A stretch of DNA of 64,000 nt, taken from contig JAHBWV010000002.1 of the NCBI GenBank assembly GCA_019636845.1, forward strand, positions 35,655-99,654, read 5' to 3'. Positions 7,248 to 40,657 of the stretch are shown one piece after another. Position numbers and translations under genes: made by a program. The number at the start of each line of letters is the position of its first letter. Within the stretch, counting starts at the first letter, position 1. Source of the stretch: Phycisphaeraceae bacterium (GTDB lineage Bacteria; Planctomycetota; Phycisphaerae; Phycisphaerales; UBA1924). The notes under the pieces were generated by a model that was not told where the DNA came from, ran no database searches, and saw nothing but the letters and a program-made list of their open reading frames with translations.

Positions 7248-7276
7248 TTGACTCAACGCCCCGTTCCGATTACGTT
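7248..7276 (+). promoter_or_regulatory. Candidate sigma70-type promoter upstream of dnaA
   Basis: TTGACT (7248-7253), a 17-nt spacer, then TACGTT (7271-7276). It is preceded by the palindrome AACACCGATTGGTGTT. The -10 element is weak. Confidence 0.25.
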
Positions 7277-7362
7277 TCGCGTTGCGGGGTCGCGTGGTGC
7301 GCCCCGTGTGTCTGACGGGTTGCTTGGCGCGAGTGCCGACGTGTGCGGGGCGCGCAGGAAGG

Positions 7363-9464: not shown

Positions 9465-10310
9465 TCATCGCTGACATCTCGCACACCACACCGTCGTCCT
9501 CTGCGCAACAACCCCACCTTTGAGGGTTGCCCCACACCCGATACACGGCTCGCCCATCCGGCCATACACCGCGTGCCCCAGCTGGGCTTGGCCCCGTTCC
9601 CCTGTTCCCCCGACGTAATCTCGCACCGTCGACCCACCCGCCTCCAGCGCGGCACGCATCACCCCACCGATCGCCAGGGCGAGCGCGTCCCACTCCTCAC
9701 GCCGCACACGTCGTGCGCCACGCGTCGGCCGGATCCCAGCCCGAAAGAGCGCCTCATCCGCGTAGATGTTCCCGACACCCGCGACCACCGATTGATCCAA
9801 CAACACACCCTTCACCGCGCGCGCCGATCTCCCACCGCGCTCGCGCAGCCCCTCCCCGGTCGCCTCCAGCGCGTCCGGACCCAGCTCGCTCCACCGATCC
9901 CTGAGCGCATCGAGCGAGAGCGGCCACAACCCGCCGAATCGGCGCGGATCACGAAACACCAGCACACCCGCGGGCTCGCGCTTCGTCGCCGCGCACGTCT
10001 CCATCGTCCACACCGCATGCACATGGTTTGTGGATGACAGATCCGGGCGCGTCGCGTGATGCACCAGCTGGCCGGTCATTCCCAGATGCACGATCAGCAC
10101 GCGGCCCGCACCCGCACCGGATCCGATCAGCGCCATCTGCTTCCCGTGCCTGCGTATCGCCTCGATCGTCGATCCCTCCAGCAACGCGCTCGCCGAGCGA
10201 TCGCCCTCCACAATGTCCGCCCGCCGCAACTCGACGCGCGACACACGCCGCCCCACGAGCAAGGGCTCGAGCGTCCGCCGCACCGTCTCCACTTCCGGCA
10301 ACTCAGGCAT
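9465..10310 (-). CDS. mutM: Formamidopyrimidine-DNA glycosylase
   Basis: It has the MPELPEVE N-terminus, the H2TH region, and the C-terminal zinc finger CIGCG...CARCQ. The start is set at MPELPEV (codon 8 of ORF 9465-10331). Confidence 0.9.
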   Translation of the reverse strand: MPELPEVETVRRTLEPLLVGRRVSRVELRRADIVEGDRSASALLEGSTIEAIRRHGKQMALIGSGAGAGRVLIVHLGMTGQLVHHATRPDLSSTNHVHAVWTMETCAATKREPAGVLVFRDPRRFGGLWPLSLDALRDRWSELGPDALEATGEGLRERGGRSARAVKGVLLDQSVVAGVGNIYADEALFRAGIRPTRGARRVRREEWDALALAIGGVMRAALEAGGSTVRDYVGGTGERGQAQLGHAVYGRMGEPCIGCGATLKGGVVAQRTTVWCARCQR

Positions 10311-10408
10311 GGGAAAGCATCCGACGTACACGCATCACAACGCTCTTCAGCCACCACTTCTTCGCGTTCAACATCTTCTTCTCGTTCTTCGCATGAAGCC
10401 CACATCTC

Positions 10409-10440
10409 CTCTCCGTGACTCTCCGTGTCCTCTGTGGTGA
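10409..10440 (+). repeat. Short dispersed repeat, family B (CTCCGTG..CCTCTGTGGTGA)
   Basis: ctctccgtgactctccgtgtcctctgtggtga lies in the mutM-tadA intergenic region. Related copies are at 28817-28860 (inverted), 30128-30210 and 30877-30910. Confidence 0.5.
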
Positions 10441-10463
10441 ATGTCTTCCTCTTCTTCCGGCTC

Positions 10464-11132
10464 TCACACCCCCGGCGCGGAACTGTCCGGCTTCCTCGGC
10501 CTGTCCGGCCTCCGCAGCGACGCGAAGAAACTCTTGAGCAGCGCAGCGCACTCATCCGCAAGCACACCATCCACCGGCACGACACGGTGATTCAGGCGCG
10601 CATCGTTCGTCAGCGACATCAGCGTGCGGCACGCACCGGCCTTCGGATCCGCCGCGCCGTACACCAGCCGCCCCACCCGCGCGTTCACGATCACACCCGC
10701 ACACATCGGGCACGGCTCCAGCGTCACCACCACCGTGCAATCGCTCAGCCGCCAATCACGCCTCACGCGGCACGCCTCGCGCATCGCCATCAACTCCGCG
10801 TGCGCTGTCGGGTCCCGATCCAGCTCGCGCCGGTTCGATGCCTCCGCCAACACCCGCCCCGTCGCCGTCTCATACACCACCGCGCCCACCGGCACCTCGC
10901 CCACAGCCGCGGCCTCGCGCGCCAGCTCCAACGCCCGACGCATCATCGCCACATCCGTCTCGGTCGCGAGAGATGTGTGAGGCGGAATGGGATCGAGTAC
11001 GGGCGAAGGATCCGGCCCGGGCTCGACGGGCTCAAGGATCCGCGTCGGACGCGGCTCCGGCACTTCCGCGTCAGGCAACGCCCCACGCGAGTACCACCCG
11101 AAGACCCTCAGGATGTCCCGTCCCAGTCCCAT
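10464..11132 (-). CDS. tadA: tRNA-specific adenosine deaminase
   Basis: It has the CDA motifs HAELMAMREA and TLEPCPMCAG. The ~60-aa Pro-rich N-terminal extension may be spurious; an alternative start lies at MMRRALEL, 10946. Confidence 0.85.
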   Translation of the reverse strand: MGLGRDILRVFGWYSRGALPDAEVPEPRPTRILEPVEPGPDPSPVLDPIPPHTSLATETDVAMMRRALELAREAAAVGEVPVGAVVYETATGRVLAEASNRRELDRDPTAHAELMAMREACRVRRDWRLSDCTVVVTLEPCPMCAGVIVNARVGRLVYGAADPKAGACRTLMSLTNDARLNHRVVPVDGVLADECAALLKSFFASLRRPDRPRKPDSSAPGV

Positions 11133-11146
11133 GTGCGCCTCCTCCT

Positions 11147-11169
11147 GGTGGCACCGCTCTCCAGAGCGG
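11147..11169. repeat. Palindromic REP-like element, family A
   Basis: GGTGGCACCGCTCTCCAGAGCGG lies 36 nt downstream of the tatC stop. Near-identical copies are at 19267-19287 and 32312-32336. Confidence 0.55.
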
Positions 11170-11206
11170 CGATGGATGCGCCAAGCCGAGCCGTCTCACC
11201 ACGCCC

Positions 11207-12211
11207 TCAATCCTCCCCCTGCTCCTCAAGAATCTCAGATTCCGTCTTGAACAGCTTCTTCGCTGGAAGAATCTTCAACAGCACAAGCCCCAGCTCATAC
11301 AGCAGATAGATCGGAATCGACAGCAGCGGCTGCGACACCGGGTCCGGAGGCGTCAACACAGCCCCGATCACGAACGCACCCAGGATCGCGTGCTTCCGAT
11401 ACTTCGCGATCACCTTCGGATCAATCGCGCCCGCCCACCCGAGCAACAGCACGACCACAGGCGTCTGGAACGCCAGCGCAAACCCGATCCCCATCACCGT
11501 CAGCCACTTGAAGTAATCCGTCAGCCGCGGCTGGATCACAATCCCCGTGTCCCGCGTCAGCGCCATCCCATAAATCTCCGGGGGTTTCCCCTCGGGCGCG
11601 ACGTTCACCCGCAATTGCCTCAGCGGCTCGTTGATCCACATCGCTCCCGAGCTCGGCTCCGACGGATCCCCACCCAGCACCGGCGCAAGCGGGAGCACGA
11701 TCCCCGGCGACTCCACGATCTGGCTCCCACGCTCCGAGATCTGCGTGCCGAAGCGCATGAAGAACGCCAGGATCACCGGAAGCAGCACGAAATACATGAA
11801 GCACGCGCTCGCCGCGGTCAGCACGCTGCTCAGCGGCAACAGAATGTGGATGAACCGCCGCTCATGCCTGTACAGCCCCGGCGCGATAAAGAGCCACGCC
11901 TGATACAGAAGCCACGGGCTGCCCATCAACACCGTCGCCAGCAGCGACACCTTGATGTACTGCGCAAACGACTCCGCCGGCGAGGTCGAAAGAAAAGTCT
12001 CCGGCAGACCCTGCTCACGGAGCGAACTCCGCGCCGGCAGCATCAGGATCTCCATCAACTTGCGACCCAGCAACAACGCCAGAATCAGAATCGGGATCAA
12101 CCCCAGCAACGCCACGATCAGCCGCGAACGCAACTCCTCCAGATGATCGCCAAACGACATGGCATCACCCGACGGCTTGTTCGTGCTCAGCATGGAAACT
12201 CGCTGGGGCAT
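11207..12211 (-). CDS. tatC: Twin-arginine translocase subunit TatC (with a large loop insertion)
   Basis: MSFGDHLEELRSRLIVALLG... matches the TatC N-terminus, and the protein has multiple TM helices. Three in-frame ATGs (12211, 12193, 12160) leave the start uncertain. An insertion of about 70 aa (SERGSQIVESPG...ALTRDTGIVIQP) sits between helices. Confidence 0.85.
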   Translation of the reverse strand: MPQRVSMLSTNKPSGDAMSFGDHLEELRSRLIVALLGLIPILILALLLGRKLMEILMLPARSSLREQGLPETFLSTSPAESFAQYIKVSLLATVLMGSPWLLYQAWLFIAPGLYRHERRFIHILLPLSSVLTAASACFMYFVLLPVILAFFMRFGTQISERGSQIVESPGIVLPLAPVLGGDPSEPSSGAMWINEPLRQLRVNVAPEGKPPEIYGMALTRDTGIVIQPRLTDYFKWLTVMGIGFALAFQTPVVVLLLGWAGAIDPKVIAKYRKHAILGAFVIGAVLTPPDPVSQPLLSIPIYLLYELGLVLLKILPAKKLFKTESEILEEQGED

Positions 12212-12399
12212 GGCGTTTGTTTGGGAAACCTCGCCCGCACCCCTTTCTACCCGGCGCGGCACAATCCGACCGAACGGTATCTGGCTCCCGATCGTTGTAC
12301 CAATCACACGCAACCAGAACCCCGAACACCGGAATTCACCTGACGGGAACCCCCACGGGTGCGCATCCTCGTTCTGAGTCATTGCGGGAGTACAAGCAC

Positions 12400-13131
12400 G
12401 TGCGACTTGTCGGGCTCGAAGACCGAGCGGCTACCGGAAGCAGCGCGGGTGCTGCGCTCGTTCTCGCCGCGATCAGGGGCGAGCGCGACGCCCAGCGCCA
12501 GGTCTGGGAAGACCACCGCCGCTGGGTCGCCGCCGTCCTCATGGCCCACAAGCCCAGACAAGCCGACCTCGAAGACCTTCTGCAGGATGTCGCCATGCAG
12601 TTCGTGCGCCGTGTCAACGAGATCCGAGACCCCGCCGCGCTCAAGCCCTGGCTCCGCACGGTCGCCGTGAACGCCGCCCACGCGTCCGGGCGCACACTCA
12701 AACGCCGTCGCCGCGACGAGACCGAGCACCGCCCCGCCTCCGCCTCCGGAGCCCTCGGGCTCACCACCGGAGCCGGCGCACCCGCCGATGCCAAGCCCGA
12801 CCTCATGACCGGACGACGCGAAGAGGCCCGACGCCTCATGGAACTCTCAGAGCGACTCCCCGACGGATACCGCGAGCCACTCCTCCTCAGATGCCTCCAG
12901 GGCATGAGCTACCGCATGATCGGCGAACTCATGGGGCTTCCGGAGACCACCATCGAGACCCGCATCGCCCGAGGCAGGCGCATGCTCCGCGAACTCGCGG
13001 AGAAAGCCCCCTCAGAAACACACCCGCCAAGCCACACCATCGAACGCAAGCCCGAAGGCGCAACGCAGGACCCGCACGCGCCACAACCACACGCAGGGAC
13101 GCCGCACGAAAACGCGGAGCCAACACCATGA
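12400..13131 (+). CDS. ECF-type RNA polymerase sigma factor
   Basis: Region 2 is DLEDLLQDVAMQFVRRV...PWLRTVAVNAA and region 4 is LPDGYREPLLLRCLQGMSYRMIGELMGLPETTIETRIARGRRML. The probable start is GTG 12400. The stop overlaps the next start (ATGA at 13128-13131). Confidence 0.85.
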   Translation: MRLVGLEDRAATGSSAGAALVLAAIRGERDAQRQVWEDHRRWVAAVLMAHKPRQADLEDLLQDVAMQFVRRVNEIRDPAALKPWLRTVAVNAAHASGRTLKRRRRDETEHRPASASGALGLTTGAGAPADAKPDLMTGRREEARRLMELSERLPDGYREPLLLRCLQGMSYRMIGELMGLPETTIETRIARGRRMLRELAEKAPSETHPPSHTIERKPEGATQDPHAPQPHAGTPHENAEPTP

Positions 13132-13763
13132 CCGGCACCGATCGTGACATCCTGATCTCACGCGTCATCGACGGCGAGGCCTCGCCCGAGGACTGGTCCG
13201 CGCTCAAGGCCCTCGCCGAACGCGACCCCTCCGTCTGGAGAGACCTCGCCGGCCTCCAGCAAGACCACGCCGAGCTCTCCGGAGCCATGGCAGAGGTCGT
13301 CGCCCTCGCCGACGATGTCGACGCTCCCGTCTACGCCGCGGGCGGCATCTCCGACCGCGCCCGCTCGCTCCGCATGTGGGGGGGCTGGGCCGCCGCCGCC
13401 GCGCTCGCCCTCGCCTGGATCGTCCGCCCGCCGAACCACGCCGAAAGCCCGAACTCGATCGTTCCGGTCAATCACGCCGCGCTCTCCCCCTTCGGCCTCT
13501 CCGCCTCCTCACAACCCGACGACTACTTCGACGCCTATCTCCGCGCAGGCCAACAGGATGGCCGCGTCCTCGGCGAGGTCGGCGAGCCCCTTCTTGTCCA
13601 GACCATCCCGCAGGAAGGGGGCGGCTACGAGGTCCGATACGTCCGACAGATCATGGAGCGACGCATCGTCCCGCAGGTCTACGGCATCGGACTCGGCTAC
13701 GACGAGCGAGGCGAGGCCCGCCCCATCCTCATCCCCGTCACCACCGCACCGGGTCGAATGTAA
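13128..13763 (+). CDS. Putative anti-sigma factor (single-pass membrane protein)
   Basis: It is translationally coupled to the ECF sigma gene. The N-terminus DRDILISRVIDGEASPEDWSALKALAERDP is typical of anti-sigma factors. One TM helix is present (WGGWAAAAALALAWIV). Confidence 0.6.
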   Translation: MTGTDRDILISRVIDGEASPEDWSALKALAERDPSVWRDLAGLQQDHAELSGAMAEVVALADDVDAPVYAAGGISDRARSLRMWGGWAAAAALALAWIVRPPNHAESPNSIVPVNHAALSPFGLSASSQPDDYFDAYLRAGQQDGRVLGEVGEPLLVQTIPQEGGGYEVRYVRQIMERRIVPQVYGIGLGYDERGEARPILIPVTTAPGRM

Positions 13764-13916
13764 TCACAACACGCACCCGCACCAATGCGACGGAAACCCG
13801 TCCCACGCGCATCACTGTGTGAGAGTCCCGATCGGCCCATTGCACCGATCCGAAAGACGAAGAGTCTCGTGGCCGCGCACCAGACCCGCACACGCCGCGA
13901 GCAACGGAGCACACCC

Positions 13917-15257
13917 ATGAACCGCAACACCAGAAACACCGCACTCCTTCCCGTCGTCTCCGCCCTCCTCCTCGTCGCCGGAGCCGCAACCGCCCACGCG
14001 CAGGTCAGGTGGTCCGACCAGCCCGCGACCCCTCCGGCACCAACGTCGGGCTCCGCCGGCTCGCACACCCGCGCTGCCTTCAACACGCACGAAGACCGCA
14101 CGATCAACATGAGCGGCACCACCCCCAAGGGCGAGAAGTACGAGGTCTCCCTCAAGAACGGCGCGCTGGTCAACGCCAAACTCAACGGCAAGCGCGTCCC
14201 CGATGATCGAATCCGCCGCACCGAATCACGCCTCGATTTCCTGGATGAACGGGGCGATGTCATCCTCTCTCTGGAGACCAACACCACCTTTCCCGAGATC
14301 CCCCCCATCCCCACCATCCCCACCATCGACTCCATCCCGCGCATCGTGCCCCAGACCGGCTCCGGGGGCACGTGGTCCACGTCGATCTCGCCCAGCGCGG
14401 GCGTCTCCTTCGCGACAACACAGACCGAGCCCCCCAGGGTCATGGTCGGCATCAACATGTCCGACGTCGGCGCAACCCTTCGCGAGCACTTCGGCCTCAG
14501 CGAAGACACCGGCTTCGTGGTCGATACGGTGATCGAGGGCCTCCCCGCATCCAACGCGGGCATCCAGCCCCGCGACATCGTCATCGCCATCGACGGCCAG
14601 AGCGTCACCAACGCCACCCTCCGCCAGGTCCTCAACACCAAAGAGCCCGGACAGAAGGTCAAGGTCCGGATCCTCCGCAAGGGAAGCGAACAGAACCTCG
14701 ACATGGTGCTCGAACCCTACGACGCCGCCAAACTCGGCATCAGCCCCACGGCTGGCGCCTCGGGCAGCGGCGGCCCGACCATCATCCGCGAGTTCCCCAT
14801 GATCGATTTCTACCGCCGCTCCGGCAACTCAGAAGAGGTCCAGCGCGCCCTCGAACTCGCCGAACGCTCCATGGAGCAGGCCATGTCCCAGCTCCGAGGC
14901 CAGCAAGGCGCAGAGAGCATGCGCGAGGCATCCGAACGCATGCGCCAGGCCCTCGAAGAGCTCCGCCGCTCACAGAGCACCCTCCGCGAAGGAACCGCAG
15001 GACAAGAAGGACTCGATCGCCTCTTCGTCGTTCCATCAGCGCCCACACCTCCCGCCTCGCCCTCCGAGCCGGGCACCGCTCAGGGACGCACCTCGCAGCG
15101 CGGCTTCCAGGTCCTCCGCGATCCCAGAGCCGCAACCCCCGCCGAAGCCGATCGCATGGGCCAACTCGAATCCCAGATCAACGAACTCAACTCCCGCCTC
15201 GACAAACTCGACGACCGCATCGGCAAACTCCTCGATCGCCTCGAACGCGGCAACTGA
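13917..15257 (+). CDS. Periplasmic PDZ-domain protein with C-terminal coiled coil
   Basis: The signal peptide is MNRNTRNTALLPVVSALLLVAGAATAHAQ. The PDZ-like segment is GFVVDTVIEGLPASNAGIQPRDIVIAIDGQSV...KVKVRILRKG. The tail is rich in E/R/Q/L heptads. Confidence 0.8.
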   Translation: MNRNTRNTALLPVVSALLLVAGAATAHAQVRWSDQPATPPAPTSGSAGSHTRAAFNTHEDRTINMSGTTPKGEKYEVSLKNGALVNAKLNGKRVPDDRIRRTESRLDFLDERGDVILSLETNTTFPEIPPIPTIPTIDSIPRIVPQTGSGGTWSTSISPSAGVSFATTQTEPPRVMVGINMSDVGATLREHFGLSEDTGFVVDTVIEGLPASNAGIQPRDIVIAIDGQSVTNATLRQVLNTKEPGQKVKVRILRKGSEQNLDMVLEPYDAAKLGISPTAGASGSGGPTIIREFPMIDFYRRSGNSEEVQRALELAERSMEQAMSQLRGQQGAESMREASERMRQALEELRRSQSTLREGTAGQEGLDRLFVVPSAPTPPASPSEPGTAQGRTSQRGFQVLRDPRAATPAEADRMGQLESQINELNSRLDKLDDRIGKLLDRLERGN

Positions 15258-15361: not shown

Positions 15362-15402
15362 GCGGGCGCGTGCAACGTCGCACGTGCCCGCGTTCTTTTC
15401 TC
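15362..15402 (+). terminator. Rho-independent terminator after the sigma/anti-sigma/PDZ operon
   Basis: A 12-bp stem pairs GCGGGCGCGTGC (15362-15373) with GCACGTGCCCGC (15380-15391), with one mismatch. It is followed by GTTCTTTTCTCC. Confidence 0.6.
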
Positions 15403-15661
15403 CTGCCGCGGCCGAAACACGCGCCAACTCCCGCGTGACAACCCCGCTCCAGCCCTCTCCGACCACGCGGTACACTGCATCGTCCAGTGCCATCGAAACA
15501 GAAACGCGGAGATGGGAGCCAGAGATGTTCGATATCGCCGTGGAGAGATTGCGCCGAATCCCTCTCAAACGCACCGACGAGGTCTGGGAGGTCGCGGCGA
15601 TGCCGCTGCCGGGTCTGTTCGGTGATCCCGGCGGCTCCGACGTCCCACAGCGGATGGCGGC

Positions 15662-16252
15662 GTGCGACCGATATCGGTCCCGGGGATCATGCGCCGAAAG
15701 GGCATGACGGTCGAGCGGGTGCGAGCATTCGCGCACGCCGCACGCGAGTTCTGGAGAGCCAAGCCGTGGACCCTGGCCGAGGGCGAGACGCTCTGGTCGA
15801 TCGAGCCGAGACCGAAGTTGAAACCGATGAGACACGTCACCGTCATGGGCGGCGGCGGCGAAGAGTTCGGGCTGGCGTTCCTCGACAACCCGGATCGAAT
15901 GAGGCAGATGATCGAATCGGACACCCCGAGCACATACTTCGAGGCCGCGCCAACGACGCACTGGAGCGTGGGCCTTGAGTGCCGCGAGGATGCGCCCCCG
16001 GCCGATGTCGCCCTCTGGGCGAGCGAGGACTTAGCGCTCGCGTCGGACGAGGCGTTCCCAATGCCGATGGGCGTAACGCCCGCAGGGCGCGCCTCACGCC
16101 CGACGCCAGAGATGCTCACGCTGATGGAGGGGTTGCTGCGCGTCTTCGCGAAAGTCGGCAAGAGGGAGTTCGAGCGGGACACGATCACGATGACCGTGCC
16201 CACGTTCGGCGGGGATGTCGGCTTTGTGCTGCACGCGGCACTCAGGACCTGA
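15662..16252 (+). CDS. Hypothetical protein (possibly the 3' part of a frameshifted longer gene starting at 15525)
   Basis: The composition looks like a protein (ERVRAFAHAAREFWRAKPWTLAEGE...VMGGGGEEFGLAFLDNPD...). The overlapping minus-strand ORFs are R/S/P-rich. An upstream ORF in another frame (ATG 15525 to stop 15707, MFDIAVERLRRIPLKRTDEVWEV...) overlaps it by 46 nt. Confidence 0.5.
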   Translation: MRPISVPGIMRRKGMTVERVRAFAHAAREFWRAKPWTLAEGETLWSIEPRPKLKPMRHVTVMGGGGEEFGLAFLDNPDRMRQMIESDTPSTYFEAAPTTHWSVGLECREDAPPADVALWASEDLALASDEAFPMPMGVTPAGRASRPTPEMLTLMEGLLRVFAKVGKREFERDTITMTVPTFGGDVGFVLHAALRT

Positions 16253-16349
16253 GAACATGGGCTTCTTGAGCAGGGGCGTTGCGTTGCGATTCTCCGACCA
16301 TGGGCGGCCGGAGTCGTCGAGGGCGGAAGGGTCGGACATGAGGGTGCTG

Positions 16350-19300
16350 TCATCTGGAAGGCGTGTGGCGTTTCCGAAATGGCAACGTGTCAAAGACGTG
16401 GATGGTCTGGTCGAACTTGTATCTGGCAACCAGGCGTGTGCCGTCCGAACTGAGTTGGAAGATGTCGAACCCATCCTCGTGCGAAGCCTCCGGTCTGAGC
16501 ACCAGCACCTCGCGCCCGGTTGCGGTTTCCCATACGCGGATGGTGTTGTCGAGCGAGGCCGTGAAGATGCGAGAGCCATCCGGGCTGAATATCGCGCGAT
16601 CGATAGCCCACGCGTGGCCCTTCAGCGTGCTGACTGTCTCCCCGGTGTCTGTGTCAACGACAACGCACCCCGCGTTCACGAAGTAGGCCATACGCGAGCC
16701 GTGGCTGTCGAACGATGCGACACCGAACCTCTGCCAGCCATCGAAGGCGGCCTGGTCGATCTCGGTAAGGACTCGATGAGCGCCGGAATCAGTCTCCCAG
16801 AGGCGAATCGTGCGATCTTCAGCCCGGGTCGCGAGGAATCTTCCAGAGGGATCGAACAGCACCTGCACCACGTGGCCGGAGTGCCCGTTGAGCGTCTGGA
16901 CTAATCGGCCGGATTCCACGTCGTACAGCTTCAGGGAGTGGTCTGACCAGGCGATCGCGGCGACAGACCCGTCCGCGTTGAGTGTGCCGCAGGGGTATCC
17001 GTCGCCCGTTGCTTCGAAGAGCGTGTCACCCGTGTCCATGTCGTACACACGCACGAGGCCGTTCCCGAGGCAGGCGAGGAGCCGCTTGCCGGCGTGGTCA
17101 CATCGGAGAGAGACCGGATCGCGTTCGGGCGTGCCGCCGTGGCGCTCTGAGATCTCGCGGCTTCGGATGGAAGGATTGTTGATGTGAACGGGGATGACGG
17201 CCTCGCCGAGGGACGCTGCGGTGGCGACATTCCATGCCCGAACGGAGGAGCCACGGCGCGTGAAGACCCGAGTTCCATCGTGGCTGAAGAACGCGCTCTG
17301 GATCCCGGCGTGGCCCTCCCACGCTTCCGGGCTTGGTATCGTCCATGTCGAAGACGGTCGGCCATTGTCAACATCGATGAGCGCGGCAGTGGCTCCTCCG
17401 CTCCAGTGGGGTGCGAGGATGTGCGTTCCGTTGAAGAGAGAGTTGTGAGCCTTCTCGAATCCAACGCGATAGATCGGGTCGTCGGGGGCCTCAAACGACG
17501 GTTGTGGGAGGGTGGTTGCATCCCAGATCCGGAAGGTGCCATCCCATGCGTAGCTGACAATCTTCGAGCCATCGGGGCTGTATGTCGTATTGATCCACGA
17601 ATCGCCGTGGCCAGCGAGTTTGGCCAGACGCTTCCCGGTGTTCGCGTCCCAGATGCAGACGAAGGGGCCTGCGTTCGCGACGATTCGCGCTCCATCGGGA
17701 GAGAACTCCCCACCATGCACGCCGTGAAGCTCCTCCGTGAACTCCTGGACGAGCTTGCCCGTGGCGATCTCATAGACTCGTCCCGCCTCGTTGTATGGGC
17801 GAACGAGCACGTGTCGTCCATCCGGAGAGACAGCGGCGCCGAGTGTCATCCACGCTGTCTCGAATGTGCCGATCGGTGTGAGCGAACTTGCGTCCCATGT
17901 GGAGTAGCGAGAGCCATGTCCATCGCTGGTCGTGGTGAGGACGATCTCGCCCCCGACATAGAGGTCGAGGTCGTTCGATAGCCCTTCGACAGAGTACAGG
18001 CACTCTCCAGAGGTTCCGTCCCAGAGGTCGATGCGGTACTTCGCGTTCTCGCCTGTGGCGACGCCCCACGTCAGGATGTCCGTGTCGTTCGCGGAGAATC
18101 GGGCCCGGAACTGCTTGTATCTCGCACTCGCGTCGATGGATGTGATGACCGATCCGTCCGATGCATTCAACACCTTGCCGGCGGCGTAGATCCTTTCGCC
18201 TGAGGATGAGAACGTCGGCTCGCCCGGCAGCACGTACCGTGGTTGCAGCGTGCGGCAGTCCCATGCCTCCGCGAAGCTTGTCTTGGAGCCGGTGAGCGGA
18301 TCGATGCGAGAGCCGAGAACACCGAGCAGGCCGGCACGGGGTGATGAACTGAAATGACGCACCACGACACTTTCGGGGCTCGATGAGATCTCCTCGCCGG
18401 TGTGTGCATCCAAGCAGACGATCTGCCCGCACTCGGAGAGGGCTGCGACGAGCTCTCCATTTGAGACGAAATCGGCTCTCATCCAGTGCGCCGGCTCTCC
18501 CGGCGCGAGGACGGCGAATCGGCTTGCGTCCGAGCTTGCCCACAGATACTGCCATTCCCAGTTGCGAAGATGCTCCGCGCACGCGCTCAGGTAGCGACGC
18601 GCTGAATAAGGGTCAGAGAGCGCGGCGAAGATGTTGGCAACATACGCGGACCACTCGGCGGCATCCGTCTTGTCGCGCAACTCCTCCTGTGCCGCAAGCA
18701 CCCTCTGCGCGGTCTCCATGGACATCGCCGCGAGTTCTCGGAGATCCGCAGGAAGAGACTCAGGCGGCTGATTCGGATCAAATCCGTTGCCCGGCGTGAT
18801 CGCGGTGTTGTTCAACGAACCGACGTATCTCACGTCCGGATCATCGAAGCGCCCCTGCAAGAACGCAACGAGTGCTCGGTTCGCTCTCTCGGCAAAATGG
18901 CGTTGCATCTCAGCCCGTGCCGCACTCTCGCCCGCGAGCCGCGCCTGATAGTCCGCCTCGACGCTCGCTCGCGCCGCACGGTTCCACCCCCACGTCGTCC
19001 CCGCAATCCCCACCAGCAACGCCGCAGCCACCGCGCTCCCCGCAATCACCGGCCCCTTGTTACGCCGCACAAACTTCCGCAACCGATACCCCGCGCTCGG
19101 CGGCGCGGCAACCACCGCCTCGCCCTTCAAGTGCCGCTCAACATCCGCGGCCAATGCGCTCGGGGTTTCGTAACGCCGGGCGCGGTCCTTGTCGAGGGAC
19201 TTCATCACGATCCAGTCGAGCTCGCCGCGGAGAGTTGAGGGAGGGAAAGGGACTTTGCGTTTGGTCGCACCGCTCTCCAGAGCGGTGTGGCTCGGGTTAG

Positions 19301-20411
19301 TTCTTTCAACTGCTGGCCTGCCCTCTGCCACCTGAGCCGGATCAGAAGACACTTCTCTCGAGAGCGGTGCCACCGAAGAGGGAACCACCAAAGAAGAATC
19401 CACTTTCATCCGCTGCGTGACGCGCACGCTCGGCGTCGGCGGCTCTTCCTCCTTGATGATGCGACGCATCTCGTCCCACGCCGCCGAACGCAGCCGCTTC
19501 CCATCAAACGGCGTGTCGCCCGCCAGCAACTCGTACAACAGCACACCCAGCGCGTACACATCCGTCCGTGTGTCAATATCCGGCGACCCCTGGGCTTGCT
19601 CGGGGCTCATGTACTCGGGCGTGCCGATGAGCTGCCGATGCTCGGTGAAGAGCGTCTTGTCAGTCAGGCCGCCGGCGGATGCGGTGGCCTTGGCGATGCC
19701 GAAGTCGATGACGCGAGCGAAGGGCTTGCCGTCGGTCATGGTGACGAGCACGTTGCCGGGCTTGATGTCGCGGTGGATGATCCCCTTGGTGTGGGCGTGC
19801 TGCACGGCGGAGCAGACCTGGGCGAAGAGTTCGAGCCGGGCGCGGAGATCGAGGGTGTTGTTTGCCGCGAACTGTGTGATGGCATCACCGACGACGTATT
19901 CCATGACGAAGTAGGGGCGGCCGCCGCCGTGCTCGGTGATGGGAGTTGCGCCGGCATCCAGCACGCGGGCGATGTGCGGGTGGTCCATGAGGGCGAGGGC
20001 CTGGCGCTCGGCCTCGAAGCGCGCGATCACCTGCTTGGTGTCCATGCCGAGCTTGATGATCTTGAGGGCGACGCGCCGGCGGACGGGATCGGTCTGCTCG
20101 GCGAGGAAGACGGTACCGAAGCCACCCTCGCCGATGACCTGGAGGAGTTTGTAGGGGCCGACGCGCGAGCCGGGGGCTTCGGTGATGGTTGCGTTACGGA
20201 TGGTGGTCGCGGCGGTGGGGCTGGTCATGAACCCCCCAACGCCCGCGGCGTCGTGTGAGCCCAGCAGGGCTTCGACCTCGGCGCGGAGGGCGGGGTTGTT
20301 GCCGCAGAGCCGACCGAGCGCAGCAGCACGCTCGGTCGGCGGGAGGCCCGCAACCTCATCAAAGATCGAGCGAACGCGATCACGGTTCGGCTTGTTGTCA
20401 TGCTCGTTCAT
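16350..20411 (-). CDS. Ser/Thr protein kinase with a TM helix and a large WD40 beta-propeller region
   Basis: The kinase motifs are [20 protein letters not shown], DFG and GTPEYMSPE. The TM helix is [24 protein letters not shown]. WD40 units include [31 protein letters not shown] and [31 protein letters not shown]. Confidence 0.92.
   Translation of the reverse strand: [1353 protein letters not shown]
19267..19374. repeat. REP-like palindromic element (family A) embedded in frame in the kinase gene
   Basis: GCACCGCTCTCCAGAGCGGTG lies at 19267-19287 and a further half-site AGAGCGGTGCCACC at 19361-19374. The span is 108 nt (36 codons) and encodes SVAPLSRE...SHTALESGA in the linker before [13 protein letters not shown]. 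Confidence 0.5.
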
Positions 20412-20412
20412 G

Positions 20413-20994
20413 TCATGCGTCTCCGTCGCCCTCGGTCAGCAAGCGATGGAGCCGCGCCCGGGCGAAGGTCCATTGGCGTGCCGCGGAGCGTGGGGAGATT
20501 CCCATGGCTTCGGCGGCGTGTTCCACGCTGAGGCCCGCGAAGAACCGCAGCTTGACGATCGCCGCGGCTTCCGGATCCTCAACCTCCAAGCGTGCGAGGG
20601 CACGATCGACTGCCAGGATTGTCTCGGAATCCGAGGAGGCGAGTGCGGCAACATCGGGGAGGTCGGCGGTTCGCGGTCGGGGGGGTTCACGTCCGCCGCG
20701 GGCTTGCTTGGCCCGGGCGTGGTCGATGAGGATCTGGCGCATGGCTTGTGCGGCGGCGGCATAGAAGTGCGCACGATTCTGCCACTGGATGTCGCGCGGG
20801 CCGAGGAGCTTGAGGTAGGCGTCGTGGACGAGGGCCGTGGGCTGGAGGGTGTGGGCGGGAGATTCGTGGGCGAGGGCGATCGCCGCGGCGGCGCGGAGCT
20901 GGTCGTAGACGAGCGGGAGGAGTTGGTTGATGCGGTCGTCGGGGGAGAGAGAGTCGTTGAGGAGGATGGTGAGGGGCGGGGGATCGGTGGGCAT
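20413..20994 (-). CDS. ECF sigma factor of the kinase-associated type
   Basis: LLPLVYDQLRAAAAIALAHESPAHTLQPTALVHDAYLKLLG...NRAHFYAAAAQAMRQILIDHAR is typical of ECF sigmas encoded next to Ser/Thr kinases. Its stop lies 1 nt before the kinase ATG (TGAcATG). Confidence 0.88.
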   Translation of the reverse strand: MPTDPPPLTILLNDSLSPDDRINQLLPLVYDQLRAAAAIALAHESPAHTLQPTALVHDAYLKLLGPRDIQWQNRAHFYAAAAQAMRQILIDHARAKQARGGREPPRPRTADLPDVAALASSDSETILAVDRALARLEVEDPEAAAIVKLRFFAGLSVEHAAEAMGISPRSAARQWTFARARLHRLLTEGDGDA

Positions 20995-21017
20995 CGGGAG
21001 AGCGTACCGCGCAGCGC

Positions 21018-21051
21018 AAGAAGAAGGCCGCGCTGAACGACCAGCGCGGCC
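21018..21051 (-). terminator. Rho-independent terminator after the PEP-CTERM gene
   Basis: A perfect 10-bp stem pairs GGCCGCGCTG (21026-21035) with CAGCGCGGCC (21042-21051), with a 6-nt loop. On the minus strand it is followed by TTCTTCTT. Confidence 0.6.
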
Positions 21052-21079
21052 TCGAGATTGTCAGTTGCGTGTTCGAGGG

Positions 21080-21658
21080 TCAGCGGCGGCGGCGTGCGGC
21101 GCAGGATGCAAGGCCCAGGAGCGCGAGGGCACCGGGCGTCGGGATCACACGGACGGTGGCCGTGAAGTACACCTGATCCGCACTGGGCGTGTGCCAGATG
21201 TTGAGCGCATCGTTTCCGATGTTCGGGCGGTCACCCCACGGACCGACGCCGTCGGCTCCGAATGAGAGCGGGGCCATGGTCGAGACGCCGAAGCCGGTGA
21301 CCGAGACCACCCAATCGGTCTGATTGGTGACCAGGCGGTCGGCACCGTTGGAGAAGAGACTGCCGTTGTTGACAGTCAGGTCGGCGATGAACGCGGCGGG
21401 GTCGCCGAAGTCCTGGGCGGAGACCTGGATGTAATACGTGCCTGCGGCGGTGAAGTCGTACGTACCGGAGAAAGTTGCACCCCAGTTGTTGCCTGTCAGG
21501 AAGATGTCACCCTGCAGGGTGGGGTCGGTCGAGATGGACATCTGGAATGCGTTGTCGGCGGTGGCAAACGCGGTGAGCGTGGCGACCTGAGCCGAGGCGG
21601 CACCTGCGACTGCCGCGACCATGGAGCATGTGAACACGAATCGAACGGTGTTGGACAT
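21080..21658 (-). CDS. Secreted PEP-CTERM-anchored protein
   Basis: The signal peptide is MSNTVRFVFTCSMVAAVAGAASAQ. The C-terminus VIPTPGALALLGLASCAARRRR has the PEP-CTERM architecture: a Pro-containing motif, a TM helix and an Arg-rich tail. Confidence 0.8.
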   Translation of the reverse strand: MSNTVRFVFTCSMVAAVAGAASAQVATLTAFATADNAFQMSISTDPTLQGDIFLTGNNWGATFSGTYDFTAAGTYYIQVSAQDFGDPAAFIADLTVNNGSLFSNGADRLVTNQTDWVVSVTGFGVSTMAPLSFGADGVGPWGDRPNIGNDALNIWHTPSADQVYFTATVRVIPTPGALALLGLASCAARRRR

Positions 21659-22003
21659 AACGACCTCCTCCGCGGCATGTTGGCGGTATGAGAAAAGATA
21701 CAGCGCATTCTCGGGCGTGCCAGTAAAGCGGCGGGCCGGAGCAGGGTATTTGCGTACTTCGGGCGAAAGCGCACCGCCGCGGTTCGGGGGGTGTGGGGGT
21801 TTTCAGCGTCTTTCAAGATGGCCGTCGACAATCGGCGAAGGCCGGGGGGTCGCGGAGGTGGGTGTAGACGAGGGGGCAACCGGTTGATGTGATCGTTGGA
21901 GGAAGGGTGTCTCGTTCAGCAGGATTGTCAGCGGGTCTTTGGGCATAGAAAGAGAAGAGCGGGAAGGAGACGGAAAACGGACGCAAGGTGGGCCGCGAAA
22001 GGC

Positions 22004-22022
22004 CACCGCTTGGCGAGCGGTG
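22004..22022. repeat. REP-like hairpin, family A variant
   Basis: CACCGCT-tggcg-AGCGGTG lies 18 nt downstream of the TVP38 stop. Confidence 0.4.
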
Positions 22023-22039
22023 CCAGCACCAACTGACGA

Positions 22040-22870
22040 TCATTCCAGTGAGGATGGTGCCTGCCCGGTGACCTTCTCCAGTGCCTTCTTCGCGATGTGG
22101 CCGATCACGATGATGACGACGAGCGTCAGGCCGATGCCGGCGAAGATCATCCACTTGGGGCGGGTTTCGGCGGCAGTGGCGACATCCTGGATCTGTGAGG
22201 CAACAAAGACCGCAACACCCGTCCGCGGAGCCATGCCGATCAACGTCCCCAACAAATATGGGAAACGCGGCACCTTCGCCGCAGCCATCACGAGGTTGGT
22301 GAGCGCAAACGGCGAGTTCGGCGGCAGGCGCAGCAACGCCACAATGCCGAGCGTCTTGAAGAAGCCCGAGCCGATCAGTGACTCACGCACCGCCCGCCAC
22401 TTGGGGTGCTCATCGATGATCACCTTCACCTTGTCGCCGGTCGCGCCCCACGCAACGCCGTAGCCGATGAGCGCGCCGCCGAAAAAGCCCGCGAGCGCGG
22501 CCGGAAACCCCGCCGCGAAGCCGAACGCCCACCCGCCCAGCACCGCCTGCGCATACGTCGGCAGCAACGCAAGACCCGCAAGCACCGCGAAGCACCCCGC
22601 GTACAAAAACACCCCGGCAACGCCGTGCGACTGAAGCCAAGGACCCACAATCGTCAGCGTCCCAAGCAGCGCAAAGCCCCCCAGCGGCGGCAACACCGAA
22701 GCAACGATCGCCAAAGGACCCACAGCTCCCGAACGCTTGAACAGTGAGCCGATGGATTCCTTCGCGGGTGGCGTTGTACGGTCAATGGCTTCCTGAACGG
22801 GCGCGGCGGGGGATGAATCTTGAGATTGGTCGGGCGAGGAGCCGGGCGATGGATTGTGGGCGTCGCTCAT
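22040..22870 (-). CDS. TVP38/TMEM64 (DedA-related) family membrane protein
   Basis: It is a multi-TM protein whose core is characteristic of the family (LLPTYAQAVLGGWAFGF...GIVALLRLPPNSPFALTNLVMAAAKVPRFPYLLGTLIGMAP). Confidence 0.85.
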   Translation of the reverse strand: MSDAHNPSPGSSPDQSQDSSPAAPVQEAIDRTTPPAKESIGSLFKRSGAVGPLAIVASVLPPLGGFALLGTLTIVGPWLQSHGVAGVFLYAGCFAVLAGLALLPTYAQAVLGGWAFGFAAGFPAALAGFFGGALIGYGVAWGATGDKVKVIIDEHPKWRAVRESLIGSGFFKTLGIVALLRLPPNSPFALTNLVMAAAKVPRFPYLLGTLIGMAPRTGVAVFVASQIQDVATAAETRPKWMIFAGIGLTLVVIIVIGHIAKKALEKVTGQAPSSLE

Positions 22871-22927
22871 GTCAGGGGGCAGCGTAGGGCGCGGGTTGTC
22901 ATGCGTGCCGCGAGCGATTGTGTTGCG

Positions 22928-23251
22928 TCAGCCCTTCTCGCGTTCGAACGAGGGCTGTTGGCGGCCGTGCCGGAACGCGAGAATCTCAACGAAGCGGTGC
23001 TCATCATCCACGCGAAAGAAGATCGCATAGTCGCCGCGGTTGGCGCGCCTTACCTCGTAGCCCCTCGCAGCGCTGGTTGCGTCGGCAACGGGAAAGCGGC
23101 GTGGCCAGTCGGAGAGCGAGTCGATGAGATGGAGCAGACCATCGAGCCAGTCTTGAAGCCGGTCATCGGCGGTGCCCTGTTTGATCAAGTAGGAGACCTG
23201 TGCGTCGATGGCTTCCTCGACCGCGCGCGGAACGACAACGCGAAAGCTCAT
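22928..23251 (-). CDS. parE: Type II toxin, ParE/RelE superfamily
   Basis: The protein is 107 aa. Its C-terminus (YEVRRANRGDYAIFFRVDDEHRFVEILAFRHGRQ) is typical of ParE. Its ATG overlaps the upstream antitoxin stop (ATGA). Confidence 0.8.
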   Translation of the reverse strand: MSFRVVVPRAVEEAIDAQVSYLIKQGTADDRLQDWLDGLLHLIDSLSDWPRRFPVADATSAARGYEVRRANRGDYAIFFRVDDEHRFVEILAFRHGRQQPSFEREKG

Positions 23252-23541
23252 GGCTTGCGGGAGATCTTGTGCTTCTTGGCGATGGAGCGAACGGCCTCGC
23301 GAGCGTCACGGGCACGTCCGGCCTTGAGGTCCGCCTCGCTGCGAAGGATCATCGCGAGCGTTTCGGCCATGTCGGCACGGTCGGCCAGTTCGTCGTAGGC
23401 CCTGGCGCTCAGCACCACCGCCTCGGTCTGGCCGTTGGTCGTGACGTAGAGCGGTCGGTCCGACTTGTTGAGGCGGTCCAGGTGCTCGCGAAGGTTTTTG
23501 CGATGCTCCGTGACGCTGGTGATGTCGGTGGTGCGGGTCAT
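23248..23541 (-). CDS. Type II antitoxin, Phd/YefM family
   Basis: MTRTTDITSVTEHRKNLREHLDRLNKSDRPLYVTTNGQTEAVVLSARAYDEL matches the Phd/YefM fold signature. The start is the internal ATG 23541, with GGAGAGG upstream. Confidence 0.8.
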   Translation of the reverse strand: MTRTTDITSVTEHRKNLREHLDRLNKSDRPLYVTTNGQTEAVVLSARAYDELADRADMAETLAMILRSEADLKAGRARDAREAVRSIAKKHKISRKP

Positions 23542-23560
23542 GGCCTCTCCATCGGCTGAG

Positions 23561-23583
23561 TGTACAGAATAATGTACGTCATG
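23561..23583 (-). promoter_or_regulatory. Candidate promoter/operator of the phd-parE operon
   Basis: The minus strand reads CATGACGTACATTATTCTGTACA, with GTACA repeats and TACATT as a possible -10. It lies 20-40 nt upstream of the antitoxin ATG. The 14-mer CATGACGTACATTA recurs at 29910-29923. Confidence 0.35.
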
Positions 23584-23673
23584 AAGAAGGTGGGTGTTCC
23601 CCGGTCCGCGCGCGGCCGTAGCTCGCAAATCGCCGCCCTTCTTATGGGACGAACACGGCTCACTCGACGATGC

Positions 23674-24045
23674 TCACGCGTACCGCCTCAGCCCCCGCTT
23701 GATCCAGCCCCCGTCGTGCCAGTTGGCCGGGTCGTGGTGGGTCCAGTGGAGCGTGCCGCCCTGATCGGTCCACGTGTACTCACCCTGGAAGCGGATCTTG
23801 TTTCCGATCTTCAGCGGCACGCGCCTCGCAAGGTCGATGTTGTGTGCAACAAGCACCGTAAAGGGGCGTCTGAACACGCCGCCCTGAATCCGGAGAAGGA
23901 AACGCTGGTGGCGGCTGCCCACGCTGTCGTCCGCGAGAATCCGGATCACCCGCCCGCTGCCGACGACCCACGCCTCGCCCGCGCGACGCCTGAAGGCGTC
24001 GCGGATCGGGATGCAGGTGTTGAGGCGCTGCGCGGTGGCTGTCAC
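23674..24045 (-). CDS. DUF3465-like small protein
   Basis: DDSVGSRHQRFLLRI...VLVAHNIDLARRVPLKIGNKIRFQGEYTWTDQGGTLHWTHHDPANWHDGGWI matches my recollection of the DUF3465 signature. The GTG start lies 4 nt after the MoxR stop. I see no obvious signal peptide. Confidence 0.6.
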   Translation of the reverse strand: MTATAQRLNTCIPIRDAFRRRAGEAWVVGSGRVIRILADDSVGSRHQRFLLRIQGGVFRRPFTVLVAHNIDLARRVPLKIGNKIRFQGEYTWTDQGGTLHWTHHDPANWHDGGWIKRGLRRYA

Positions 24046-24049
24046 GCGC

Positions 24050-25132
<1,083 letters not shown>

Positions 25133-25267
25133 GCCTCAAACCCTCCGTGGGGATCCGCGTCCTCTTCATGCCCTCACCGCGATGCACATGGTACCGGGGT
25201 GCCGCGACGGGGATTCGCCCGTTCACGCACACCACGCGCCCGCCACCGCCCGCCCATACCCTCTCAC

Positions 25268-28860: not shown

Positions 28861-29148
28861 CCAAGAGCACTCACCACTCGGCTCGCAGAGGCATGCGCAA
28901 GAGCGGAACCCGCAGGGAGACAGGGTGAGAAAGGATCAGAAGGAAAGGCACGAGAGCGACACAGGCGTTCCGCCGCGGAGCGGCGTGCGGCGGTTGCCAG
29001 CGGTCAGTGAGGGGTGGAGCCCCGAGCGCAACCCCTGGAAGGCGGCTTCAACTTTCTCCGCTGTTCGTTGCTCCTTCCTTTGATCGCTCCGGCAGGGGCA
29101 AGCGGTGAGCGCATCGGGATCAGGCATGCTCTGGCGCGGGAGGATCTC

Positions 29149-29595
29149 ATGCCAAGCACATGGTCACAGGTTCTGCTGCACATTCTTTGTTCGACCAAGA
29201 GCCGCACGCCGTCGATCGAGACGGACGTTGCTGATGATCTGTATGGCTTCATCGGTGGGATCGTGCGTGATGAGGACGACATGCTGCTTGCGATTGGTGG
29301 GATGCCCGATCATGTCCACATGTTGGTGCGCTGGGGAACCGACAAAGCGATTTCTGAGTTGATGCGACATGTCAAGACACGATCTTCGCGATGGATGCAC
29401 AAATCACGCGGCGTCAGCGCGTTCGCGTGGCAGGTCGGTTATGGCGTGTTCTCCGTGAGCCAATCGCAGGCGGAGGGAGTGAAAGCGTACATCAGGAGTC
29501 AGCCGGAGCATCACGCCAAGCGATCGTTCAGAGAGGAGTTGGTGGCGCTGCTGAAGGCGCATGAGGTGGAGTATGACGAGAAGTATCTGGATTGA
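29149..29595 (+). CDS. rayT: REP-associated tyrosine transposase (RAYT; IS200-like Y1 HUH transposase)
   Basis: The HUH motif is MPDHVHMLV and the Tyr region is FAWQVGYGVFSVSQSQ. The C-terminus FREELVALLKAHEVEYDEKYLD is typical of COG1943-type RAYTs. The start is set at MPSTWSQVLLHILCSTKSR. It is a single copy with no TnpB. Confidence 0.8.
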   Translation: MPSTWSQVLLHILCSTKSRTPSIETDVADDLYGFIGGIVRDEDDMLLAIGGMPDHVHMLVRWGTDKAISELMRHVKTRSSRWMHKSRGVSAFAWQVGYGVFSVSQSQAEGVKAYIRSQPEHHAKRSFREELVALLKAHEVEYDEKYLD

Positions 29596-30982: not shown

Positions 30983-31286
30983 ACACTCCTCCCATCCGAC
31001 CAACGTCTGGACCACCCCTCCCCGAGGGTCTACTGTTCTCTTCCCACGGGTCGGACGGAGTCCGGCTTCTGGGGCGTTCGGGTTGAGGCGGCCGCTTTCC
31101 AGCGGCGGCACCGGCCCGAGCGAAGAGCACACAAGTCTGCCGGCTTCATGGAAGGCCGGCCCGCCCCGCCCGGCAGGCGGCGAACCGAACCCCCATCCGG
31201 GCTGGCGAAGTGGCACATGCCATCGCTCGACCGGAACCAGGGCCAGAACCGTTTAGCGCCGGAAGCGTCCGGCGGAGGCAGATCCG

Positions 31287-40372: not shown

Positions 40373-40657
40373 GGGCCACTCCGTAGGTGAGGGGGGGGCG
40401 CGAGGATGTGTTCCACGGCTCCCCCGGCGGTCGGGAAGTGTACACCGGCGGGGGTGGGAGGTGTTGTGGGGCTGGTTCTTGCGCCACGATCTGTGGTGGT
40501 GGCGTGTTTTCCTGTGGGTGGCTTGGGGATTTCGGGGTGGTTTCGGGGTGTCGGTCCGAACCCGGACCTATGGTATTGGTTACGTTGTTGGGGGTGCGGG
40601 AGCCCGATCTCGGGCCTCCGTTGTCCTTTGTCGCCGACTCGGCAGGGAGCTGGACGG

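Follow-up and report, generated by a model that had tools for sequence, protein, structure and literature searches.

Codon-polarity reversals within single genes mark a probable recombinant patchwork beside the candidate replication origin of a Phycisphaeraceae bacterium

Introduction

Why would genes that are transcribed in the direction of replication carry the codon usage of the opposite strand, and why would that usage revert inside single genes? Both questions are raised by a block of about 8 kb in a stretch of 64,000 nucleotides (hereafter the window) from a metagenome-assembled genome (MAG) of the Phycisphaeraceae. The block holds, among others, genes for an extracytoplasmic function (ECF) sigma factor, a Ser/Thr kinase with WD40 repeats (MBX3318133.1) and a TVP38 protein. 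By comparing this locus with related genomes (given below as L numbers) we found that its codon polarity matches its ancestry, breakpoints included, and we conclude that the block is probably a recombinant patchwork of two allele lineages that were long replicated in opposite directions.

Local reversals of GC skew have been read as inversions (Merrikh and Merrikh, 2018, PMC6220195), a reading that has met with criticism (Liu and Zhang, 2022, PMC9098844). The pairing of an ECF sigma factor with a WD40 kinase is a typical feature of Planctomycetota (PMC11032199).

Strand bias of the window and extent of the wrong-polarity block

The window has a G+C content of 65%, and the GC skew of its plus strand is about -0.2 at 1-15 kb and 24-31 kb and about +0.2 from 32 kb on. 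The sign flips once, at about 31 kb, between dnaA (7252-8838, plus strand) and dnaN (39236-40567, minus strand), which serve as left-hand and right-hand markers of the origin region; from this switch and the positions of dnaA, dnaN and rplM and rpsI (31.2-32.3 kb), the window appears to span an origin-type skew minimum near 31 kb. The switch (30100-31260), where the cumulative skew reaches its minimum and local repeats are found, is a candidate oriC. Left of 31 kb, third codon positions are C-rich in plus-strand genes and G-rich in minus-strand genes, and the mirror image is seen to the right. Because genes on both strands obey the sign of the plus strand, with skews of ±0.4 to 0.7 at four-fold degenerate sites, the bias is a property of the DNA strand and not of the direction of transcription. 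The alanine codons GCG and GCC, for example, stand at 560:97 in leading-strand genes and at 189:421 in lagging-strand genes. This strand-specific codon usage is exceptionally strong over the whole window (four-fold GC skew about ±0.6). In what follows, G-type denotes leading-strand and C-type lagging-strand codon usage.

The initial annotation, made from the letters of the window, had described a G-rich block of the plus strand at about 15.5-23.65 kb, and the skew near zero or positive at 16-24 kb, together with the reversed four-fold skews of the genes there, confirms it. We bounded the block at 15398-23679, where collinear high-identity blastn homology with the closed genome L002 (CP075368.1) ends (breaks in collinear homology with close relatives at 15397/15398 and 23679/23680). 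The genes at 16350-23628 are all on the minus strand, that is, on the leading strand and co-directional with replication, yet they are mostly C-type. Their four-fold coding skews are -0.55 for the ECF gene, -0.40 for a gene encoding a PEP-CTERM-like protein, -0.50 for parE, -0.37 for phd and -0.61 for kinase codons 1-250, as against +0.34 to +0.71 in neighbouring minus-strand genes. Among the genes originally assigned to the block, the kinase N-terminus, the ECF and PEP-CTERM-like genes, the two ends of TVP38 and parE/phd are indeed C-type; the hypothetical gene at the left edge is near neutral (+0.10) and the WD40 part of the kinase weakly C-type. The RAYT gene, an IS200-like Y1 transposase outside the block (29014-29595, plus strand), had been said to behave like the block, and its GC3 (third-position) skew of +0.22 is indeed reversed.

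Reversals inside genes were delimited with a codon log-likelihood score of leading-type versus lagging-type reference genes, stratified by amino acid, with 24 reference genes scored leave-one-out. Two segments emerged as maximally reversed: kinase codons 274-615 (18567-19592), with +126 bits, and TVP38 codons 43-223 (22202-22744), with +130 bits. No reference gene scores above 48 bits, and most score 24 or less. The G/T-ending patches proposed earlier, at about 22195-22735 between the C-ending flanks of TVP38 and at about 18.55-19.59 kb in the kinase, were in this way recovered within about 10-20 bp. The TVP38 patch stands as it was described. That of the kinase is not uniform, with a negative dip at codons 351-425, and in place of two breakpoints this gene has a finer mosaic of at least six segments, which differs even from that of a near-identical sister genome.

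Three arrangements of the locus among related genomes

In arrangement A (L002, L099 and L100) the gene order is GatA, GatC, DUF7309, MoxR, DUF3465, variable genes, TVP38, ECF, kinase and, on the opposite strand, PDZ; the ECF and TVP38 genes and the kinase N-terminus are G-type, as expected from their orientation. Arrangement B, that of the window, L084, L085, L086 and L092, has the same order and carries phd and parE, lacks DUF7309 beside MoxR, and has a diverged copy of DUF7309 (68% amino-acid identity) inverted between kinase and PDZ. The B loci share the wrong polarity of the window, with the TVP38 core and kinase codons 426-475 G-type. Arrangement C (L088, L095 and L097) has the same flanks, the whole MoxR-to-kinase segment being inverted, and all its block genes are C-type, in equilibrium with the local strand. 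An inversion polymorphism among related genomes, which the initial annotation had suggested looking for, thus exists. Relative to the C genomes the whole segment of the window from the hypothetical gene to MoxR is inverted, whereas relative to the A genomes only DUF7309 is inverted and relocated.

The flanks give the tree ((window, L085), A genomes), C genomes, with four-fold differences of 0.01-0.05, 0.12-0.27 and 0.41-0.67, respectively. To the right the block is followed by DUF3465 and MoxR (23674-25132, minus strand), the former near neutral and the latter of correct polarity; both lie within the segment that is inverted in L088, L095 and L097, and DUF3465 follows the flank tree.

The Logan assembly L001 (run SRR17720540) is 100% identical to the window over 19752-24632, which includes the right edge of the block and both TVP38 junctions, and the sister assemblies L084, L085, L086 and L092 have the window's layout and most of its mosaic. 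L084 and L092 come from the same ENA sample (ERZ2606016). From Rce1 to parE their per-gene codon scores are identical, and the differences between them lie in the 3' end of TVP38, the 5' half of the ECF gene, the presence of a 244-residue gene and the C-terminus of the kinase. In L092 the first half of the ECF gene is G-type and the second half C-type, and the kinase, identical to that of the window up to about codon 475, is unrelated from about codon 476. Exchange between alleles is ongoing.

Polarity tracks ancestry

By nucleotide identity, the C-type segments of the window group with the inverted lineage and the G-type patches with the non-inverted close relatives. The flanks overall are 83-94% identical to arrangement A and 63-85% to the C-type genomes, the G-type MoxR gene being 93% identical to the former and 83-84% to the latter. 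The C-type segments are nearer to the C genomes than the flanks are: the four-fold difference (p4) from L088 is 0.27-0.31 in the ECF gene and the kinase N-terminus and 0.41-0.47 in the flanks. To control for third positions we restricted the comparison to codon positions 1 and 2, and the polarity of the window remained a predictor of relative distance (Spearman rho -0.53, p 0.001; Mann-Whitney p 0.003).

Painting the sites at which the A and C consensus differ gave long ancestry runs, with z values in the runs test of -6.3 (TVP38) and -4.2 (kinase). The ancestry changes at 19593/19587, 22748/22742 and 22205/22199, and the polarity, determined from the window alone, at 19592/3, 22744/5 and 22201/2. 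Two independent signals, polarity and ancestry, therefore place the breakpoints within 6 bp of each other. This coincidence upholds the earlier proposal that block and patches derive from alleles that evolved in opposite replication orientations. Adjacent tracts with different nearest relatives, and informative sites that are clustered, identify mosaic genes formed by homologous recombination.

The differences from L002 are directional in the C-type segments. The ECF gene has 28 G-to-C differences and no C-to-G among the commonest change types (p4 0.49), kinase codons 1-273 have 39 G-to-C against 3 C-to-G, and in MoxR the changes are symmetric (11 against 8, p4 0.26). About 10% of the G sites of L002 are C in the MoxR gene of the window and 43% are C in its ECF gene, and the latter is at full C-type equilibrium (-0.55, compared with about -0.6 in native lagging genes). 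The equilibrium, the directional changes and the closeness to L088 together suggest that the C-type DNA had a long evolutionary history in the opposite orientation, within or close to the arrangement-C lineage, before it was transferred.

Mosaic structure of the TVP38 and kinase genes

TVP38 (minus strand) consists of three tracts. Codons 1-42 (22745-22870) are C-type and resemble the inverted lineage. At the 22748/22742 ancestry switch they give way to codons 43-223 (22202-22744), the core with the VTT domain, which are G-type; their identity is 90% to arrangement A, where the four-fold difference (0.30) matches that of the flanks, and 75-76% to the inverted lineage. Codons 224-276 (22040-22201), beyond the switch at 22205/22199, are again C-type, with 79% identity to arrangement A and 86% to L097; within them, codons 226-250 are 95% identical to L095, of the inverted lineage, and 81% to L002. 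In L084 the gene is split into products of 207 and 78 residues.

The kinase, also on the minus strand, has 1353 residues, with a Pkinase domain at the N-terminus and WD40 repeats at the C-terminus. Its first 25 codons (20337-20411) are G-type, with identities of 93% to arrangement A and of 64-65% to the inverted lineage. Codons 26-273 (19593-20336), which cover most of the catalytic domain, are C-type and 89-91% identical to the C-type genomes and 80-84% to arrangement A. The tract that follows, codons 274-350 (19362-19592), begins at the ancestry switch between 19593 and 19587; it is G-type, 86-87% identical in nucleotides to arrangement A and 73-76% to the inverted lineage. Codons 351-425 (19137-19361) comprise a window-specific insertion of about 50 codons (GC3 0.58) and then a short stretch resembling the inverted lineage. 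Codons 426-615 (18567-19136) are G-type and common to the sister genomes; of these, codons 426-475 are 91% identical to L099 (arrangement A) and 63-77% to the C-type genomes, and for codons 476-615 protein and genome searches found no close relative. The linker and WD40 beta-propeller, codons 616-1353 (16350-18566), are weakly C-type with a lower GC3; they are identical in the sister L085, and their best outside match, P0002, has 80% amino-acid identity.

The catalytic domain spans residues 87-321, and the polarity boundary at codon 274 falls inside it. Over residues 101-300 the protein is 96-100% identical across alleles, and this conserved domain probably supplies the homology for crossovers. 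The kinase of L002 itself has a C-type patch at codons 151-200.

Close strains differ in pattern. Between the window and L085, p4 is 0.01-0.05 in the flanks and 0.00-0.07 in kinase codons 401-1353, and 0.3-0.67 in kinase codons 51-400. L085 is C-type at codons 274-350 and has 69% identity to the window at codons 276-300. The linker insertion of the window (codons 351-400, 19212-19361) is mostly missing from more distant homologues, and L085 has at this site an equally long but unrelated stretch (42% amino-acid identity). Exact-match metagenome scans for the 19593 junction gave no match, and a protein search with kinase residues 221-420 for contigs across this junction returned only matches below full identity, most of about 45-58%. 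Among the matches listed from a search of genome contigs with the kinase N-terminus, only relatives at 65% identity or less (L004-L083) were found.

Origin, direction and route of the patchwork

The very strong replication-strand mutation bias of this lineage makes its DNA record the direction of its long-term replication. Among related Phycisphaeraceae the PDZ-GatC segment, with MoxR, DUF3465, TVP38, ECF and the WD40 kinase, 8-15 kb from the origin-type skew switch, exists in two orientations, one co-directional with replication and G-type (arrangement A) and one inverted and C-type (arrangement C). In arrangement B most of 15.4-23.7 kb would come from the C-type lineage, namely the TVP38 ends, parE/phd, the PEP-CTERM-like gene, the ECF gene and kinase codons 26-273, and MoxR, the TVP38 core and kinase codons 1-25, 274-350 and 426-475 would be of A-type descent. 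The segments would have been joined through homologous recombination inside conserved coding sequence.

The initial annotation regarded the block as recently inverted or acquired. Acquisition fits better, the kinase-ECF-TVP38 group not being physically inverted relative to its closest relatives. It further took the patches to be imports. Divergence from the A genomes is as large in the G-type patches as in the flanks, and the simplest reading is therefore that they are resident and that the C-type DNA, the wrong-polarity bulk, is the imported part. Two routes can be envisaged. The C-type tracts could have been imported into an A-like backbone, along with a relocation of DUF7309; alternatively, a whole C-type block could have been acquired, re-inverted and then back-converted by A-type alleles. 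The relocation of DUF7309 is the exact outcome of one inversion of the whole inter-flank segment of the C-type layout. DUF7309 was found in no sampled C genome at the place predicted by the inversion route, and the 234- and 237-residue proteins beside GatC in L088 and L095 proved to have no homology to it, so that a route by two inversions finds no anchor in a sampled genome.

Several points weigh against a patchwork of two lineages with C-type import. Simple allelic replacement leaves the DUF7309 relocation unexplained; this fits a route via an inverted state, which would make the G-type patches the imports. No near-identical donor allele was found, the best matches to the C-type tracts reaching 85-97% in 25-codon windows. 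The similarity at third positions stems partly from shared composition, and the control on positions 1 and 2 has few informative sites in the catalytic domain. Kinase codons 476-615, which are G-type, and 616-1353 are without a close relative; the patch at 19362-19592 is specific to the window, that is, to one MAG assembly; and the origin is a putative one, assigned from skew and gene markers only.

Alternative explanations

We consider it unlikely that the C-type sequence came by intragenomic gene conversion from a second, lagging-strand ECF-kinase cassette and not from an orthologous allele of another lineage. A C-type cassette in an unrelated context (L093) is as similar to the C-type segments of the window as the inverted orthologues are (86% for ECF and 89% for kinase codons 26-273), and the Ser/Thr kinase families of Planctomycetota are thought to expand via duplication and/or recombination (PMC11032199). 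However, the C-type ends of TVP38, a gene that lies outside the L093 cassette, match the orthologous TVP38 of the inverted lineage (95% to L095 at codons 226-250), and the top matches included no paralogue from the 64-kb window or the rest of its contig.

A simple recent inversion in situ, in which the 8-kb block flipped after the split from the close relatives, the reversed skew is the un-ameliorated or newly evolving trace of this event and the patches are later gene conversions, is less probable again. In its favour, inversion classically shows itself as reversed skew (PMC6220195), DUF7309 has a different position and the opposite orientation with respect to L002, and arrangement B corresponds to arrangement C plus one inversion of the whole inter-flank segment. 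Nevertheless, kinase, ECF and TVP38 are oriented relative to MoxR and PDZ as in L002, L099 and L100, and none of the related genomes compared has only 15.4-23.7 kb flipped, which is the precursor needed. The fractions of G sites turned to C in MoxR and ECF (about 10% versus 43%) suggest that the time since the split from the A genomes has been too short, and the C-type segments are nearer than the flanks to the distant genomes of the inverted lineage, as the p4 values to L088 (0.27-0.31 versus 0.41-0.47) indicate.

That an assembler joined reads of co-occurring strains or of paralogues is very improbable. The genome is metagenome-assembled, sample ERZ2606016 contains two strains whose differences are confined to the block, and the window-specific 19593 junction is without independent support. 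Against such a chimera, the Logan assembly is 100% identical to the window over the right block edge, both TVP38 junctions and kinase codons 1-220, and the TVP38 mosaic and kinase codons 401-1353 recur in L084, L085, L086 and L092, whose samples and assemblers differ. For the features common to L001, L084, L085, L086 and L092 assembly error is excluded, and it could concern only the patch at 19362-19592.

An intrinsic cause, by which amino-acid composition, the codon preference of membrane segments or local mRNA selection makes the patches G/T-ending, can practically be set aside: the TVP38 patch does roughly equal the conserved membrane core with the VTT domain, and third-position G/C choice is partly fixed by the amino acid, but the flip persists at four-fold sites and in the amino-acid-stratified score, L088, L095, L097 and L093 all have C-type usage in the TVP38 core and in kinase codons 276-350 (for the kinase stretch, L085 does too), and the kinase boundary at codon 274 lies inside the catalytic domain.

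Relation to known systems and significance

Homologous recombination between diverged alleles is known to produce mosaic genes, for example the pbp genes of pneumococci. The likeness to these is close, with alternating ancestry tracts in one open reading frame (ORF), breakpoints in conserved sequence and patterns that differ between close strains. Unlike the pbp tracts, those described here are visible in one sequence, since the parental alleles carry opposite strand-bias signatures. Extreme strand bias thereby makes third-position composition a built-in ancestry tag, by which tracts are resolved to a few base pairs from one sequence, with comparison confirming them independently.

With the inversions read from GC-skew reversals the locus shares a strand composition that contradicts the present replication orientation and is read as the record of a past one, and also a real inversion among related genomes. 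It differs in that the reversed-skew genes are not inverted relative to their closest relatives, the DNA having probably come as alleles from an inverted lineage, and in that the signal flips inside single genes at boundaries resolved to a few base pairs. Reversed skew is present without inversion relative to close relatives because the allele probably came from a lineage with an inverted locus; the case is thus a counter-example to reading negative skew as gene inversion and bears on the dispute between PMC6220195 and PMC9098844. The underlying biology, inversion and homologous recombination, is known and is seen at unusual resolution; what is unusual here are the intragenic polarity flips with ancestry-verified breakpoints, and the fully reversed skew of genes that are not inverted relative to close relatives.

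In gene content the locus resembles the Planctomycetota pairs of an ECF sigma factor and a Hanks-type Ser/Thr WD40 kinase (PMC11032199), with an adjacent ECF gene (PF07638, TIGR02999) and 1353-residue Pkinase-WD40 kinase; the likeness covers gene content only and not the phenomenon. New with respect to that literature is that the catalytic domain stays nearly invariant while the linker and WD40 part are swapped between very close strains. Rearrangement and recombination appear to have a hotspot in the dnaA-dnaN region beside the origin, where a signalling cassette is diversifying fast.

More speculatively, and with considerable doubt, the origin-proximal ECF-sigma/WD40-kinase cassette might have persisted in Phycisphaeraceae for a long time in two orientations, one lineage having it head-on and another co-directional, with alleles crossing between the classes; selection for sensor diversity, or for orientation-dependent expression or mutability, might then maintain the exchange and the rapid swapping of WD40 parts. 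If this were so, strand-bias "barcodes" could be used genome-wide in high-skew lineages to date and map recombination from single genomes.

Remaining genes of the block and the origin neighbourhood

The ECF sigma factor gene (20413-20994, minus strand) is C-type throughout, with nucleotide identities of 85-86% to the inverted lineage and 77% to arrangement A. An ECF-kinase cassette also occurs outside the origin-proximal locus: in L093 (JGI 3300055294, 10001-14655) the pair is flanked by an FHA/GAF histidine kinase and thioredoxin, with EF-Tu, SecE and NusG close by, and is C-type, its kinase being without WD40 matches.

Two slots of the block hold variable cargo. In arrangement B the first, between DUF3465 and TVP38 (22871-23673), is occupied by phd/parE; the A genomes have genes of 192-223 and 568-604 residues there, and the C genomes either a gene of 268 residues or none. 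The C-type parE and phd genes (22928-23628, minus strand), found only in the arrangement-B genomes, overlap and match PF05016 (3.9e-08) and PF02604 (7.4e-11), and constitute a type II toxin-antitoxin pair of the ParE/Phd kind. The second slot, between TVP38 and ECF (20995-22039), has the PEP-CTERM-like gene in the window, a 244-residue opposite-strand gene in L085 and a 174-residue gene in L095, and is empty elsewhere. The PEP-CTERM-like gene (21080-21658, minus strand, C-type), absent from all related loci compared, encodes a putative secreted protein with an N-terminal signal-like sequence and a C-terminus that reads VIPTPGALALLGLASCAARRRR; no Pfam or NCBIfam HMM matched it.

The hypothetical gene at the left edge (15626-16252, plus strand) has a weak Pfam match to DUF7309 and 68% amino-acid identity to residues 155-346 of the L002 DUF7309 protein. 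Residues 1-29 of that protein match at 15512-15611 and residues 155-346 at 15683-16149, and several ORFs overlap in different frames at 15384-16252. Judged from these matches, the gene may be a truncated, internally deleted or frameshifted pseudogene. In the arrangement-A relatives the homologue stands beside MoxR, in the opposite orientation to the window copy; compared with L002 the window has a clean 1199-bp absence at 25216/25217, and DUF7309 is reinserted between the 3' ends of PDZ and the kinase.

Neither a genomic island or mobile element nor a site-specific invertible segment was recognized. There is no tRNA in the window, no recombinase in the block and no significant repeat at its junctions, and no invertase domain among the scanned proteins of block and flanks. 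Searches for inverted and direct repeats at 15.3-15.6, 16.15-16.35, 23.6-23.7 and 25.1-25.3 kb yielded only shared 10-11-mers at chance level, with no end inverted repeats, and no REP-like repeats were seen at the block junctions. The RAYT gene lies 5 kb outside the block; in all arrangement-B genomes it adjoins Rce1 with reversed polarity (L084, 345-2149; L092, 2632-3183), and in L084 an IS110 transposase stands beside it.

In the candidate origin region, dnaA and dnaN are about 30 kb apart and flank the skew switch; both are lagging-strand genes with C-type codon usage that point toward the switch, a layout that differs from the usual adjacent, co-directional dnaA-dnaN pair. A shift of the origin toward dnaA was considered as the cause of the block and rejected, since normal polarity is kept at 9-15 kb and 24-31 kb. 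Near the switch there is one DnaA-box match with one mismatch (30648), and just to its left are direct repeats with 35-nt units at 30128, 30179 and 30875 and 31-nt units at 30694 and 30847. Repeats and DnaA-box-like site fall inside a 349-codon ORF (29933-30982) without a Pfam match, which may be the oriC instead of a gene. The neighbourhood of the origin has been rearranged more than once. In L088 the skew switch (15700-18600) is at GatC/Amidase, so that Rce1 is replicated in the direction opposite to that in the window (25-31 kb), and in L097 the switch (18300-20800) is further out and Rce1 is near neutral.

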